Below are positions 30,720 through 41,939 of a DNA stretch of 64,000 nt, piece by piece. Location of the stretch: the NCBI GenBank assembly GCA_028289815.1, contig JAPYNQ010000081.1, positions 24,577 to 88,576 of the forward strand, given 5' to 3'. The notes under the pieces were generated by a model. The model ran no database searches. It was given only the letters and a program-made list of their open reading frames with translations, and was not told the DNA's origin. The translations under genes were made by a program, and so were the position numbers. The DNA is from Gammaproteobacteria bacterium (GTDB lineage: Bacteria; Pseudomonadota; Gammaproteobacteria; JAJDYQ01). Each line of letters starts with the position of its first letter. The first letter of the stretch is position 1.

Positions 30720-30905
30720 CTATTGTACCGACATAATCAGCAGTGATACAAAAAGCACAACCAGCCCGAGCACAAAGACGACATTTGCCCAATCGCCTTT
30801 ATTCGCCTTGGGCCCGTTTTGCGACCAGTATTTATAGGCTGGCCACATGGCAAATAGCATCATGCCAATAGCAATAGCCGCCATAACTTTTAACGCTGTT
30901 TCCAT
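30720..30905 (-). CDS. Small two-TM membrane protein (hypothetical)
   Basis: 61-aa ORF with two clear hydrophobic helices. SD-like GGAGGAAC lies before the ATG. I recognise no family. Confidence 0.4.
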   Translation of the reverse strand: METALKVMAAIAIGMMLFAMWPAYKYWSQNGPKANKGDWANVVFVLGLVVLFVSLLIMSVQ

Positions 30906-33411: not shown

Positions 33412-33751
33412 TGGATTAAAGGGAAAACAGGTGGAGGATGTGAGGATAGTAAAACCGGCGGCAATAGTATACACCAGTCATTGAGAAAATTAAATCGTGG
33501 TAGAGAGGAACACAGCTGGCCTTGCAGGCGGTTGTCCTTGCTTCTGGCGCCAGAATTTCCCTCGATTTCATCCACACCAGAAAATCCGGTGGTTCCATAT
33601 CTGTTTTTTTGGTCAGCTCAGAGTGAATGGTGCTTATCGTGAAGCAGAACATAGCGCTTAATTTGCTCAAGTAGTCTTCATCGGCCTGTAGAGAATGGTT
33701 TAATTGTCATAAGCGATCTCTCGCCGAGTCCAAATTGGAGGCTGTACAGTG

Positions 33752-34651
33752 CTATAACAATATCAAGATCAAGGCAATAACCACTAAGCCAATCAATGCA
33801 CCGATCATCATCCGCCTCAAATTCAGAAGATCCGCCTTCACCGAGGCGATGTCAGCCTTTGTTGCCAGTGAGTGTGACGGGGTTTTCATGCTGGCCTGAT
33901 CCTTTGCAGTTTTGACTTTTGTTTCCAATGGCAGAGCTTCTTTTTCATCAGTCGGTCCTTCAAGAGGGAGTGCATCCTGCGCTTCAGGCTGAGTATCGTG
34001 GTCGCGATATATTTCTTTGAAATTCTCCGGAGATTCCAAGGCATCGCGTAGTTTGTCTGCGTGCCTTAAAGATACATACAGGGCGGCAGAACGGGCTTGG
34101 CAGCTGAATGATTTTTTCGGATTGAACTCGATATCGGTAAATCCATGATACTTCATCTCCATCAATTCATCGGATAAATGTTTGTTTTGATCTAGGGCAT
34201 TAACATATACCCAGTCGTAGAAAAAAGTTTCAGGCTGGAGGGGGAACTCTTTCCCAAAAAACAAGAAGGCAACAAGCCTTCCCGATTCTTTTAGCCGCTT
34301 ATCCTTTTTGGCATCGCGTGATGTCTTATTCAGTAGATCAGTAAATGGCCCTCCGTTCTCAAATTTCTTGCTGCTTTGAAATGCAGTCTCGACAGAAAAC
34401 TTTTCTCCCTTTCGTTGAGTTGTAATCATCAGATTAAATGCACTTAATTTAATACCCAGCTCATCTTTTGATTTGCTTGATATTTCGAGGATGGGAGAAA
34501 TTTTTTGCTCTGCTGCCGCGTCATGCAGTGATTGAACAGATTTTTGTTTTTGGATTTTTGCTATTCCGGGAAACCATTCAAAATTAATCGTGACTTCATC
34601 GACGCCAGCCTCGGGAGCAGTCTTCGGTACAAATATGGGACGGCTGGCCAT
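33752..34651 (-). CDS. Uncharacterised partner of the DarT-like enzyme: about 200-aa globular domain, acidic P/E/A linker, short coiled coil, and a C-terminal TM anchor
   Basis: 299-aa ORF. Its ATG lies 6 nt after the upstream gene's stop, and a GAGGAA SD sits inside the upstream gene's last codons. The C-terminus RRMMIGALIGLVVIALILILL* is a terminal hydrophobic helix. No macrodomain motifs are present. There is a weak SxExxFQxxKKF motif (FSVETAFQSSKKF). Confidence 0.7.
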   Translation of the reverse strand: MASRPIFVPKTAPEAGVDEVTINFEWFPGIAKIQKQKSVQSLHDAAAEQKISPILEISSKSKDELGIKLSAFNLMITTQRKGEKFSVETAFQSSKKFENGGPFTDLLNKTSRDAKKDKRLKESGRLVAFLFFGKEFPLQPETFFYDWVYVNALDQNKHLSDELMEMKYHGFTDIEFNPKKSFSCQARSAALYVSLRHADKLRDALESPENFKEIYRDHDTQPEAQDALPLEGPTDEKEALPLETKVKTAKDQASMKTPSHSLATKADIASVKADLLNLRRMMIGALIGLVVIALILILL

Positions 34652-34657
34652 GCCAGG

Positions 34658-35314
34658 CTAATTCCTCGGGCCAAATACTTTTGTTCCTTCTTTACAATAC
34701 AACGTGCGTAGGCTTGGGTATTTCTTTCGGTATTGCTGCCTAGCCGTCTCGTTATTGAATACAAGTCCAAGTATCTTTTTCGGGCTGATAGTATCAAATA
34801 CCAACACCTCAGCCTGAGGATCGGTGGGGTAGCATGGTTTAAGGCTTCGCCTCTCTCGGGTGTCGTCCTTTGGATCTTCTATTTCATCAAACATCGCATT
34901 AAGAGCATTGTGATTACTTAATTGTTCTTTGGGCAGTTTCCGAATACGGTGGTCAGCCGCATTCTGTTTACAGAAGGCGCATTCAGATTTCCAGAGTATA
35001 CTTTTATGTATAAGAAGTACCACCCATTCAATTTTTTTACCAAGTATCTTCCAGTCAATTTCAGCTTCACATCTGTATTTATAGAACATTTTATCATTTG
35101 GGAAAGTAATGGACAGAGAAATGGAGTCGCGCCACCCGTCTAGTCGCTTATTATCATTTATTTCTGCCTTCAGTTTGCCTTGATCAATATCGCTGCGAGT
35201 GACAATACCATGCTCCAGAATCCCATCAAGATTCTTAAGACGAGTGAAGTGAACAAGATATGAAATCTCTCTGGCTTTGACGATGTCCTTAAGTTTTTCA
35301 GTATCGGATTTCAC
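34658..35314 (-). CDS. DarT-like (DUF4433-type) ADP-ribosyltransferase
   Basis: 218-aa ORF with motifs in DarT order and spacing: YLVHFTRLKNLDGILEHGI (H-x-T NAD site; compare DarT YHITHIDNL), ITFPNDKMFYKY (compare VPFYFCPRSPMLY), FCKQNAAD (compare F.TDGNA), and DPQAEVLVFDTISPKKI (catalytic Glu context; compare KQAEFLV). AT-rich relative to its neighbours. Confidence 0.72.
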   Translation of the reverse strand: MKSDTEKLKDIVKAREISYLVHFTRLKNLDGILEHGIVTRSDIDQGKLKAEINDNKRLDGWRDSISLSITFPNDKMFYKYRCEAEIDWKILGKKIEWVVLLIHKSILWKSECAFCKQNAADHRIRKLPKEQLSNHNALNAMFDEIEDPKDDTRERRSLKPCYPTDPQAEVLVFDTISPKKILGLVFNNETARQQYRKKYPSLRTLYCKEGTKVFGPRN

Positions 35315-35393
35315 GATTAGTATTCTTGGTTATGTAATCACTTCACAGAAGTAATATTTTCTATGTCACTCCAGTCAATAACAGAAGAGATGC

Positions 35394-40199: not shown

Positions 40200-40424
40200 A
40201 TGACATGGTCTGGTAATGAGCGATACTGGGGCAGGGGTGGTACGACCATGCCGTGGCAGGGCTGGCACAAAGACCGTTACCCTTGGAACAGGGAAGAGAA
40301 TTACGAAATTCTTCCTTGGAACTGGAACATTAACAACGGTCCGTGGAATGGTTGGGCGGAGCGCCATCGTAAATTCAAAACTAGGAAATACGATAGTGGT
40401 AGCAGCAGTGTCGATATTAACTAA
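40200..40424 (+). CDS. W/N/G-rich low-complexity ORF, in the same frame as the preceding ORF (possible downstream half of one interrupted gene)
   Basis: Same reading frame as 39876-40175, and the only stop between them is the TAG at 40173. The codons right after the TAG (SGNWNSND) already have the W/N-rich composition. The ORF has no signal peptide or SD of its own. Confidence 0.25.
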   Translation: MTWSGNERYWGRGGTTMPWQGWHKDRYPWNREENYEILPWNWNINNGPWNGWAERHRKFKTRKYDSGSSSVDIN

Positions 40425-40659
40425 AGCCTGTCTTAAAACTTTTTGAGGGAGTCTTGGACAACTCTATCCCTGAATTATCAGTGTACAAAAAACAATCATG
40501 TAAGCTGATCAGAATTTGATTGCATACAGAACAGATTAGAAATCAGATTATTTTCAGCCGCCTGTTAATGCCGACAAGCGTACCAGAGATTCTGAGTATC
40601 TCTACAGTTCGTAGTCAATCAGCCGAACTGATAGCCAGCAGAAAAAGGAATGAAGAGAA

Positions 40660-41562
40660 ATGCCGTTATTTGAAATTAGTGATGAAAATAAACTCTTGCC
40701 TGTAGCGCAGATAGATTTTTCTCAGGAAAAGGAACTGCGAAAACTGATTGAGGATAATCTGAAGGCAGTATTTAATTGTCGTTTAGTGGCAACTGAGTTC
40801 CCTACAGGAACAGTTCATGCCGGTAGAATTGATTCCTTGGCATTATCGGAAGATGATAACCCCATAATCATTGAGTATAAAAGAGTTGAATCATCAGAAC
40901 TGGTTAATCAAAGTCTCTTCTATTTGGCTTGGATGCGGGACCACAAGGGAGATTTTGAAAGAGCAGTTCAAAAATCTCTGGGTAGTGATATTAAGGTAGA
41001 TTGGTCTCACATCAGAGTTATCTGTATAGCACCTAATTATAAAAAATTCGATCTTTATGCTGTGCAGATGATGGGAGTAAATATTGAACTATGAAGGTAT
41101 CGTTTATTCTCAAATAATCATTTTCATCTGGAGTCGATATTTCATAATTCCAAGCAAAGCCTCAATCAAGAACCTATTAAAAGAAGAGATAACGAGACAA
41201 TAGCTCAACATACATTTGCCGAAATCATTCAAAGCAAGTCGCAAGAAATTCAGAGCTTGGCACAGATTATCCGTGAATTTGTTATCGGATTAGACGAGAT
41301 GATTGAAGAAGTACCCAGAAAACTCTACGTGGCTTATAGATCATCTCAGAATATTGTGTGTATGGAAGTCAAAGCTAAACATATCAAGTTATGGTTGAAA
41401 TTAAGCTCTCTTGATATTAAAGAATCACTAGAAGGCTATAGAGATGTTAGTAATATCGGGCACTATGGAACAGGGAATGTGGAGTTTACTGTTTCATCCG
41501 AACCGGAATTTGGTAAAGTCAAAAAATATATTGAAATGGCATATCATAAGATCGGTAGTTAA
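40660..41562 (+). pseudogene. PD-(D/E)xK nuclease (NucS/DUF91-like) fused to a DUF5655-like C-terminal domain, interrupted by a single in-frame TGA at 41092-41094
   Basis: ORFs 40660-41094 and 41257-41562 are in the same frame. My translation of the gap contains no other stop (IEL*RYRLFSNNHFHLESIF...QSLAQIIREFV). Nuclease core GRIDSLALSEDDNPIIIEYKR. My recollection is that the TGA sits where homologues have Trp (TGG). Confidence 0.72.
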
Positions 41563-41852
41563 TAGCTGACAATAAATCATTCTGACGAGTGTTCCTTGAA
41601 TGAGGTTCTAATGATCGCCTTCTTTGGCGACAACGAAAGTGCTACTTCCTTGTCATTCTGCGTTTCGCTGCTGGTGATGTAAGGTATCAGATTTTATCTA
41701 TCAGGAGATATGAGCTACCTTGGGAAAGCAAATGTGCAACCGATCCCGGGTTTGCGGATAAATGCTTTTGGCAGGTTTTTCGGGACCGTCAATACGGGTG
41801 ACCAAGGTGCTTCATGCCTTGCGATTCTTGAGCTAGGCCGGCGGCCTGAAAA

Positions 41853-41939
41853 TGGTGCCGAGGAGAGGACTTGAACCTCCACGGGGTTTCCCCCACTAGC
41901 ACCTGAAGCTAGCGTGTCTACCAATTTCACCACCTCGGC
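41853..41939 (-). tRNA. tRNA-Leu (anticodon CAG), type II with long variable arm, CCA encoded
   Basis: The minus strand reads GCCGAGGTGGTGAAATTGGTAGACACGCTAGCTTCAGGTGCTAGTGGGGGAAACCCCGTGGAGGTTCAAGTCCTCTCCTCGGCACCA. Anticodon loop TTCAGGT. T-arm GGTTCAAGTCC. Confidence 0.95.

Follow-up and report, generated by a model that had tools for sequence, protein, structure and literature searches.

The locus lies within a 64,000-nt stretch of the gammaproteobacterial contig JAPYNQ010000081.1 (assembly GCA_028289815.1), referred to here as the window, and consists of two adjacent genes on the minus strand. The upstream gene, darT1 (34658..35314), begins with GTG and encodes a 218-aa DarT1-type toxin, predicted to be an ADP-ribosyltransferase that acts on guanine in single-stranded (ss) DNA. 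The downstream gene (33752..34651) begins with ATG and encodes a 299-aa partner, whose homologues are NADAR proteins. Both genes are real, and neither open reading frame is interrupted. At the junction between them (34652..34667, minus strand), the sequence reads directly as ...CCGAGGAAT TAG CCTGGC ATG. The TAG stop codon of darT1 (34658-34660) is followed by a 6-nt spacer (34652-34657) and then by the ATG of the NADAR gene, while a GAGGAA Shine-Dalgarno sequence (34662-34667) is located within the final codons of darT1, 10 nt ahead of that ATG. Comparable gaps, mostly of -1 to +13 nt, separate the DarT and NADAR genes of relatives, and the 6-nt spacing is thus typical of the family. Furthermore, among 80 NADAR loci taken from named genomes, 72 have a DarT gene directly upstream in the same orientation. 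A preliminary description of this DNA, made from the sequence alone, had reported two same-strand genes 6 nt apart with a Shine-Dalgarno sequence embedded in the end of the first, and had proposed that they form an operon-type toxin-antitoxin module. The minus-strand sequence and the co-occurrence of the homologues bear out both points.

The genes that flank the pair include serS, the gene for malate synthase G (msG), and the genes for an RND pump and its HlyD-type adaptor, and host-like genes continue on both sides of the cassette for tens of kb. These flanks hold no defence or mobile-element genes, and the pair does not lie in a defence island. The GC content of the two cassette genes is 0.41-0.43 versus 0.51-0.56 for the flanking genes; the pair constitutes a two-gene low-GC islet, a sign of the cassette's foreign origin. 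Between the stop codon of the RND pump gene and the start of darT1 lies a 79-nt spacer (35315..35393, minus strand) that is AT-rich in composition (GC 0.33) and presumably represents the left edge of the inserted cassette together with a putative promoter region. In a promoter/terminator scan, there was no excess of signals over shuffled sequences, and no consensus promoter passed within this spacer. A search for flanking direct or inverted repeats and for a target-site duplication gave only short matches at chance level, so that the left boundary of the insertion is not definable. On the other side, the host intergenic region (33475..33751, minus strand) extends from the stop codon of what appears to be a former DUF1640 gene to msG. 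Part of it aligns, at the DNA level, with the corresponding region of the closest related genome, L082 (msG 83% identical), and positions 6992-7089 of L082 match 33420-33323 of the window by blastn.

The product of the first gene matches the Pfam DarT family PF14487 over residues 22-199 (E=1.9e-20; 73.9 bits, cut-off 22.5) and the PADLOC DarT model (E=3.5e-8), and it scores below the NCBIfam toxin_DarT equivalog (17.8 bits versus a cut-off of 150). A PDB sequence search aligned it with E. coli C7 DarT1 (8baq) across residues 8-203 (E=5.7e-34), and at E<=1 this search returned no other meaningful match to a solved structure. A single-sequence AlphaFold2 (AF2) model of the protein is unusable (mean pLDDT 41); its similarity to 8baq suggests an ADP-ribosyltransferase (ART) fold. 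The motifs from which the protein had originally been recognized as a DarT-family enzyme with a catalytic Glu at position 169 are located as described, with VHFT beginning at residue 21 (His22), FYKY at 77, FCKQNAAD at 114, and QAEVLV at 167 (Glu169). The protein carries H22-F23-T24, R57, D59, M76-F77-Y78-K79-Y80, N118, Q167, and E169, and retains 17 of the 18 active-site residues named in PMC11543638, including Glu169. R57, D59, M76, N118, E169, K79, and Y80 are equivalent to R52, D54, M71, N104, E152, K74, and Y75 of the E. coli C7 enzyme, in which the first five are essential for catalysis and the last two contact guanine (PMC11543638). Profile, 8baq match, and residues thus uphold the original assignment. 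The protein is also nearer to characterized DarT1 than to DarT2, and its target base is predicted to be guanine, not thymine.

The partner contains a NADAR domain (aa 1-229; 33965..34651, minus strand), as seen in the Pfam, PDB, Foldseek, and homologue-alignment results. Its match to PF22397, "DarT1-associated NADAR antitoxin," is end to end (all 212 model positions are covered, by residues 2-215; E=5.6e-90; 300.9 bits, cut-off 27), and its sequence aligns from residue 1 with that of the DarT1-associated NADAR of Geobacter lovleyi, for which a crystal structure is available (PDB 8bat; E=2.6e-72). A Foldseek search of the PDB with an AF2 model of the partner, which is of moderate quality (mean pLDDT 68), returned 8bat (E=5.2e-21; TM score on the target 0.77; 219 aligned columns; 56% identity) and nothing else at E<=0.001. 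At its N terminus, the modelled protein forms two strands (residues 2-9 and 17-24) and two helices (32-35 and 39-48), which correspond to the DarT1-type N-terminal extension. E88, K95, K115, and D173 are all present and are invariant in a 13-sequence alignment; in the E. coli C7 NADAR, E88, K95, K115, and D171 are needed for guanine de-ADP-ribosylation and for rescue (PMC11543638). In addition, an alignment with 12 homologues shows that Q225 and L228 are invariant at the C-terminal end of the family, and the NADAR domain is complete to the canonical C terminus. As had been noted, the partner has no macrodomain: none was present among its Pfam hits at E<=1 or in the PDB sequence and Foldseek searches. 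Other parts of the preliminary description fared less well. The SxExxFQxxKKF motif that it had called weakly NADAR-like is present at residues 86-97, but it is the catalytic E88/K95 motif of a very strong full-length NADAR match. Likewise, the proposal that the partner is of an undescribed type, and the pair a candidate new module, is not compatible with the end-to-end PF22397 match, the conserved catalytic residues, and the resemblance of the modelled fold to that of 8bat: the partner is an antitoxin of a known kind.

The described system closest to this pair is DarT1-NADAR, or DarTG1, of E. coli C7 and G. lovleyi (Schuller et al. 2023, PMC11543638; structures 8BAQ, 8BAR, and 8BAS for DarT1 and 8BAT for NADAR). 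The likeness extends to the toxin-first order of the two genes, their tight spacing, and both Pfam families. As compared with DarTG1, the window DarT1 keeps H-F-T, R, D, M-F-Y-K-Y, N, and Q-x-E, including the predicted guanine-reading residues, and the window NADAR keeps the DarT1-specific N-terminal extension and the equivalents of E88, K95, K115, and D171. The toxin differs from that of E. coli C7 by a 9-residue insertion after the YKYRC segment and by a Gly in place of S26. The antitoxin differs in having ~70 extra C-terminal residues, whereas the DarT1-associated NADARs described so far each consist of one free-standing domain of ~231 aa, a feature that is typical of this group rather than defining and from which the 299-aa protein departs. 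DarTG2 of Thermus and Mycobacterium, in which DarT2 is paired with the macrodomain protein DarG, is alike in combining an ADP-ribosyltransferase of ssDNA bases with an ADP-ribosyl-hydrolase antitoxin and in its anti-phage role. However, the window pair has neither a macrodomain nor a DarT2-binding domain, and its predicted base is guanine rather than the thymine of DarTG2. The NADAR fold of the partner, and presumably its DNA ADP-ribosylglycohydrolase chemistry, recur in phage AdfN and other NADARs that stand alone (PMC11825919, PMC11125620), but in the literature these are described as having no DarT1-type N-terminal extension and no neighbouring DarT gene, whereas the window protein has the extension and lies next to a DarT gene.

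The extra residues form a chimeric tail (aa 230-299 plus the stop codon; 33752..33964, minus strand), recognized by BLASTP and blastn matches to L082, the AF2 model, and hydropathy. Canonical NADARs end in ...YRDHDAELKVQGVLV followed by a stop codon; the window protein has YRDHDTQPEAQDAL and then runs on. Residues 219-263, which include a Pro/acidic linker, are modelled with low confidence and are followed by a single confident helix at 265-298. The last 19 residues (281-299; nt 33755-33811) are a transmembrane (TM) segment with a Kyte-Doolittle mean of 3.17, in agreement with the earlier reading of a C-terminal helix and TM anchor. NADAR homologues are 211-249 aa long in all 119 proteins listed and 215-258 aa long in 78 of the 80 genome loci, and the ~70-aa tail is absent from all 199 of these relatives.

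Searches with the tail alone gave no origin for it. Against Pfam, only sub-threshold matches to XhlA and RIFIN were obtained and none to PF07798. A word-indexed search of 5.8 billion proteins and a metagenome DNA scan found no homologues. When 1.84 billion representatives were searched exhaustively with HMMER, the sole matches were the tail's own protein and P0241, a repeat protein of 1675 aa (E=1.4e-8). Neither protein nor metagenome searches revealed tail-like homologues attached to other NADARs. The origin of the tail becomes clear only through synteny with the msG region of the related genome. In L082, a PF07798 (DUF1640/CCDC90-like) gene lies ~200 nt upstream of msG, and the tail is found beside msG in exactly this position. 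By BLASTP, the tail is 53% identical over 75 aa (E=5e-13) to the 123-aa product of that gene, in which residues 55-123 are the part matched. At the DNA level, positions 33926-33741 of the window match L082 by blastn (E=4e-14), and the stop codon and the bases downstream of it are common to both. Synonymous divergence (pS) from L082 is 0.56 for the tail and 0.55 for msG, as expected for vertically inherited host DNA. Members of PF07798 are small tail-anchored coiled-coil proteins, and the tail shares their LATKAD repeat helix and C-terminal TM segment. However, it has only a C-terminal fragment, without the N-terminal part that Pfam recognizes, and its repeats have gained prolines. As judged from this homology, which is to the C-terminal part only, the tail is a PF07798 fragment rather than a family member, and the TM anchor is most probably what remains of the 3' end of a DUF1640/CCDC90-like host gene, not the trait of a new antitoxin class.

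Two other accounts of the C-terminal region were considered. The first was a frameshift, but the other two frames past codon 195 are full of stops and contain no canonical NADAR C terminus; since the NADAR part is complete in the alignment, loss of its stop codon with fusion is preferred. The second came from tblastn, which stretched the DUF1640 match into NADAR residues 196-225. This was judged to be over-extension, as the stretch is clearly NADAR-homologous. It should also be noted that L082 is the only related genome with an intact DUF1640-msG arrangement and that it is itself rearranged upstream, with IS fragments and a duplicated msG fragment. The contig P0123 begins at msG, and relatives whose msG is 75% identical have different genes upstream of it, which adds no support for the ancestral state.

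Taken together, these results lead to the interpretation, to which a probability of roughly 0.87 is assigned, that the locus is an ordinary member of the known DarT1-NADAR (DarTG1) toxin-antitoxin and anti-phage system that gained its anchor by insertion into a host membrane-protein gene. By homology, DarT1 would use NAD+ to place ADP-ribose on the N2 amino group of guanine in ssDNA and thereby block replication. The NADAR hydrolase, translated together with DarT1, would strip off the modification in the manner of a type IV-like enzymatic antitoxin and keep the uninfected cell alive, while during phage infection, modification of phage DNA by DarT1 would win out. As for the chimera, a low-GC cassette of ~1.6 kb would have entered beside msG, inside the resident gene for a DUF1640/CCDC90-like tail-anchored membrane protein, whose 5' half was then presumably lost. 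With the NADAR stop codon also lost, translation would run from the complete NADAR domain, without a change of frame, into what had been the final ~70 codons of the host gene. In the predicted product, the NADAR domain is followed by a disordered linker of ~45 aa and by a helix that ends in the C-terminal TM anchor; from the arginines that precede the TM segment, a cytoplasmic location is predicted for the NADAR domain.

One consideration against this interpretation is that tethering to the membrane might limit the access of NADAR to chromosomal DNA, in which case an active DarT1 would be hard to account for unless the long linker gives enough reach. In favour of the interpretation, DarG1 has been described as an enzymatic antitoxin whose binding to DarT1 was not detected (PMC11825919). 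Should the chimera prove to work while tethered, it would offer a means of asking whether free access to the nucleoid is required by a type IV antitoxin that repairs DNA. As a system, the pair is textbook DarTG1, and the membrane-tethered chimera is a single-lineage curiosity from one metagenome. It offers a clean natural example in which a minimal two-gene defence cassette lands in a host gene and gains a membrane anchor by in-frame fusion.

A different view, which is considered unlikely, is that the tail-anchored NADAR works and is under selection, as part of a DarTG1 variant that holds its antitoxin at the inner membrane by a flexible linker of ~45 residues. The tether could tune the balance of toxin and antitoxin, or it could make the release or loss of the antitoxin depend on what happens to the membrane in phage infection. 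Although its synonymous divergence from the orthologue is 0.56, the 70-codon tail still reads through without a stop; each of the four indels that separate it from L082 has a length divisible by three, and in the aligned DNA the membrane-proximal LATKADIASVKADLL is identical at 15 of 15 residues, with synonymous differences only. The TM segment is still strongly hydrophobic, and pN/pS is 0.35 there versus 0.51 in the linker, while the former coiled-coil part has gained prolines and is modelled as disordered. This contrast between the two parts would point to some time having elapsed since the fusion, during which selection retained the anchor. Furthermore, other C-terminal fusions of DarT1-type NADARs exist (to DUF5655 and to a DNA methylase). 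However, the chimera is a singleton, with no TM tail in the 119 listed protein homologues or the 80 genome loci and no NADAR-attached homologues of its tail. If the fusion were recent, the conservation could be explained with no selection on the chimera, a pN/pS of 0.45 fits one constrained and one neutral branch, and an in-frame fusion arises by chance 1 time in 3. When metagenomes were scanned for DUF1640 orthologues, only a single relative was found (36% identity), so that a branch-specific dN/dS is not computable. If the tether is selected, then de-ADP-ribosylation might be confined in space or might cease upon perturbation of the membrane, providing a new way to set the trigger threshold of type IV toxin-antitoxin defence. 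The locus would, in addition, document how a defence gene can acquire a localization signal by insertion into a host gene.

Far less probable is that the long reading frame is an assembly or sequencing artefact at the NADAR stop codon, or that the system is decaying, with an inactivated antitoxin and a disabled toxin. The data are metagenome-derived, and the sequence is a singleton in the 5.8 billion-protein database. Nevertheless, an identical 299-aa reading frame is recorded on contigs from two samples, host DNA flanks the cassette on both sides, and an artefact would require loss of the stop codon together with an in-frame join. Decay, in turn, is difficult to reconcile with the uninterrupted reading frames and with the retention of every known essential residue in both proteins. 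The least credible of the alternatives is the original view of a new toxin-antitoxin or defence module, in which a DarT toxin is paired with a membrane-anchored antitoxin of a new class, neither macrodomain nor NADAR: the partner does lack a macrodomain and does have a TM anchor, but this view is already refuted by the full-length PF22397 match and the 56% identity to 8bat, the catalytic residues are kept, and the anchor is accounted for as what is left of a host gene. A false lead is thus removed, the supposed new antitoxin class being the published NADAR antitoxin of DarT1. This NADAR subgroup is the one that the preliminary description itself had listed as described.

Two open reading frames lie on the minus strand, a darT1-type toxin gene of 218 aa with a GTG start (34658..35314) and a NADAR antitoxin gene of 299 aa with an ATG start (33752..34651). 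On the coding strand their junction reads ...CCGAGGAAT-TAG-CCTGGC-ATG; therefore, the intergenic distance is 6 nt. A Shine-Dalgarno sequence, GAGGAA, can be read within the final codons of darT1, so this arrangement is as the preliminary description gave it, and the toxin motifs that it listed are also in place: VHFT (His22), FYKY at 77, FCKQNAAD at 114, and QAEVLV (Glu169). The 218-aa protein matches Pfam DarT (PF14487, E=1.9e-20) and the PADLOC DarT model, and its sole meaningful match among solved structures is E. coli C7 DarT1 (8BAQ/8BAR/8BAS; E=5.7e-34, residues 8-203). It does not reach the NCBIfam toxin_DarT equivalog (17.8 bits versus a cut-off of 150). When the DarT1 residues of Schuller et al. 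2023 (PMC11543638) were mapped onto it by alignment, 17 of the 18 were found to be kept (H22/F23/T24, R40, N53/D54, R57, D59, S68, M76/F77/Y78/K79/Y80, N118, Q167, and E169). This set takes in every residue whose alanine substitution abolished DarT1 toxicity, as well as the guanine-reading residues. The earlier identification of the first product as a DarT toxin is upheld.

The partner had been postulated to be of an undescribed type. This is refuted by an end-to-end match to Pfam PF22397, "DarT1-associated NADAR antitoxin" (E=5.6e-90, 300.9 bits, cut-off 27; residues 2-215 of the protein cover model positions 1-212 of 212), and by the crystal structure of Geobacter lovleyi NADAR, 8BAT, which matches residues 1-217 (E=2.6e-72). 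Furthermore, in the Foldseek comparison proposed earlier, the only significant PDB neighbor of an AlphaFold2 model built from a 13-sequence alignment (mean pLDDT 68) was again 8BAT (E=5.2e-21, TM 0.77 on the target). In E. coli C7 NADAR, guanine-ADPr hydrolysis or rescue requires E88, K95, K115, and D171 (PMC11543638). E88, K95, K115, and D173 are all found in the 299-aa protein and are invariant across the 13 sequences. Thus, the SxExxFQxxKKF motif is indeed present, but it is the E88/K95 catalytic motif of NADAR rather than the weak motif it had been taken for.

In DarT1-NADAR pairs, the toxin attaches ADP-ribose to guanine in ssDNA, and the antitoxin undoes the modification (PMC11543638); an anti-phage role has been reported for DarT1-NADAR (PMC11825919). 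Given the PF14487/8BAQ and PF22397/8BAT matches and the retained key residues, the pair is, as judged from sequence, a DarT1-NADAR (DarTG1) toxin-antitoxin system in membership and predicted function; it is not DarTG2, because it has no macrodomain. It differs from characterized DarTG1 in a chimeric C-terminal tail on the antitoxin, a 9-residue insertion after YKYRC in DarT1, and Gly in place of S26. A survey with one genome per GTDB species gave 566 NADAR-DarT1 relatives, and in the best 80 of these loci DarT was sought by BLASTP and then with an HMM built from the first matches. The adjacency expected earlier was borne out: 72 of these loci contain a DarT gene. The hosts belong to Pseudomonadota, Bacillota, Planctomycetota, Acidobacteriota, and Chloroflexota, and include a Methanosarcina. 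Wherever its position was tabulated or printed, DarT ends immediately upstream of NADAR on the same strand, with gaps that are mostly -1 to +13 nt; the 6-nt gap seen here is typical. The present locus does not lie in a defence island; it is flanked by serS, malate synthase G (msG), an RND pump gene, and the gene for the pump's adaptor. Between serS and msG lies a 61-aa ORF (30720-30905, minus strand) with two hydrophobic stretches and no Pfam match; the annotation of the 101,645-bp source contig, from a JGI metagenome, lists it among the genes.

Protein homologues of the antitoxin are 211-249 aa long and reach at most 78% query coverage (119 among the matches listed). Among the best 80 of the 566 loci, all but two have a NADAR ORF of 215-258 aa, and a hydrophobic tail is absent from all 80. 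In alignment, canonical NADARs stop at ...YRDHDAELKVQGVLV*, with Gln and Leu invariant. The 299-aa protein reaches this end at YRDHDTQPEAQDAL (Q225, L228) and continues for 71 residues; therefore, the NADAR domain is complete and the extension starts at the family's usual stop. A frameshift as its source was excluded. Other C-terminal fusions of NADAR-DarT1 are a 415-aa protein with DUF5655 in Methanosarcina hadiensis TD41E1-1 (NZ_CP136241.1, L080:3968-5215) and a 901-aa protein with an N6/N4 DNA methylase in a Salinispira sp. MAG (L081:3989-6694), each with a DarT match just upstream. The methylase fusion seems of greater interest than the present tail.

No relatives of the tail were detectable by direct protein, Pfam, or metagenome DNA search; its origin was resolved by synteny. 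On the coding strand, msG is the next gene downstream of NADAR, and the closest msG in the databases (P0122, 83% identical) lies on a 2.57-Mb contig. A 123-aa gene that exceeds the Pfam threshold for PF07798 (CCDC90-like/DUF1640) precedes this msG by about 200 nt in the same orientation. Residues 55-123 of its product align with residues 226-298 of the 299-aa protein (53% identity, E=5e-13), window 33926-33741 matches the gene by blastn (E=4e-14), and the DNA alignment extends across the common stop codon and the following bases (TATAGCACTGTACAGC versus TATAGCGCTGTACGGC). Relative to this gene and to msG in L082, the closest related genome, synonymous divergence (pS) is 0.56 for the tail and 0.55 for msG; similar values would be predicted for a tail made of host DNA that was passed down together with msG. 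GC content is 0.41-0.43 (GC3 0.41) in darT1 and the NADAR body versus 0.51-0.56 in the flanking genes. Taken together, these results indicate that the tail descends from a DUF1640/CCDC90-like host gene. In the simplest history, a low-GC DarT1-NADAR cassette would have inserted into the resident gene, whose 5' half would have been lost, and the NADAR ORF would have become joined in frame to its final ~70 codons. No remnant of the 5' half was found in the window.

In L082 (L082:4900-6425), IS fragments (HTH_Tnp_1, rve) lie upstream of the DUF1640 gene, followed by a 345-nt piece that shares 90% identity with the 5' portion of the msG of L082 itself; thus, the relative also has a rearrangement hot spot upstream of msG. 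Further upstream is a DUF4011 and AAA_11/AAA_12/MTES_1575 helicase pair. In an exhaustive search, the only non-self match of the tail was P0241 (E=1.4e-8), a 1675-aa and probably repeat-rich coiled-coil or low-complexity protein, in which 12 repeated stretches match tail residues 7-60.

In the AlphaFold2 model, the NADAR domain (residues 1-217) is followed by a low-confidence stretch (219-263, pLDDT about 31) and a single confident helix (265-298, pLDDT 87-95), whose C-terminal 19 residues form a TM segment. The last 19 residues of the protein (281-299) are very hydrophobic (mean Kyte-Doolittle 3.17), with two arginines before the segment and nothing after it. By the positive-inside rule of membrane topology, the NADAR domain is predicted to face the cytoplasm and to be held by a tail anchor. 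The membrane anchor noticed earlier is genuine; it is, however, a by-product of the insertion, through a fusion specific to this lineage, and not the hallmark of a new type of partner. An in-frame ATG at codon 257 (Met257, window 33881-33883) has AAGGA ~10 nt upstream as read from the sequence, and separate expression of a 43-aa helix-TM remnant could in principle occur; the L082 orthologue has GTG at this codon.

It might be argued instead that the tail is a functional tether with a mechanistically meaningful role. Its ORF is open, the four indels that set it apart from the orthologue all have lengths divisible by three, LATKADIASVKADLL is identical to the orthologue with synonymous differences only in the aligned DNA, and the TM segment has retained its hydrophobicity even as the former coiled-coil repeats have gained prolines. 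However, pN/pS for the tail, a value to which both a constrained branch and the branch in question contribute, is 0.45 (linker 0.51; helix and TM 0.35) versus 0.16 for msG, and we consider such a role improbable. No relatives closer than L082 that could date the fusion were found in the databases searched. The chimeric NADAR most likely still neutralizes DarT1, because the essential DarT1 residues are all kept and at least one sample yielded an assembly of the organism of >100 kb.

Another region of low GC content (0.38-0.44; 40200-41939) adjoins the window's only tRNA gene, tRNA-Leu(CAG) (41853-41939, minus strand), and may be another small island. Its ORFs have no Pfam matches, save for a 101-aa ORF (41257-41562, plus strand) that barely attains the threshold for DUF5655 (24.2 bits versus 24), the same domain as in the Methanosarcina fusion.
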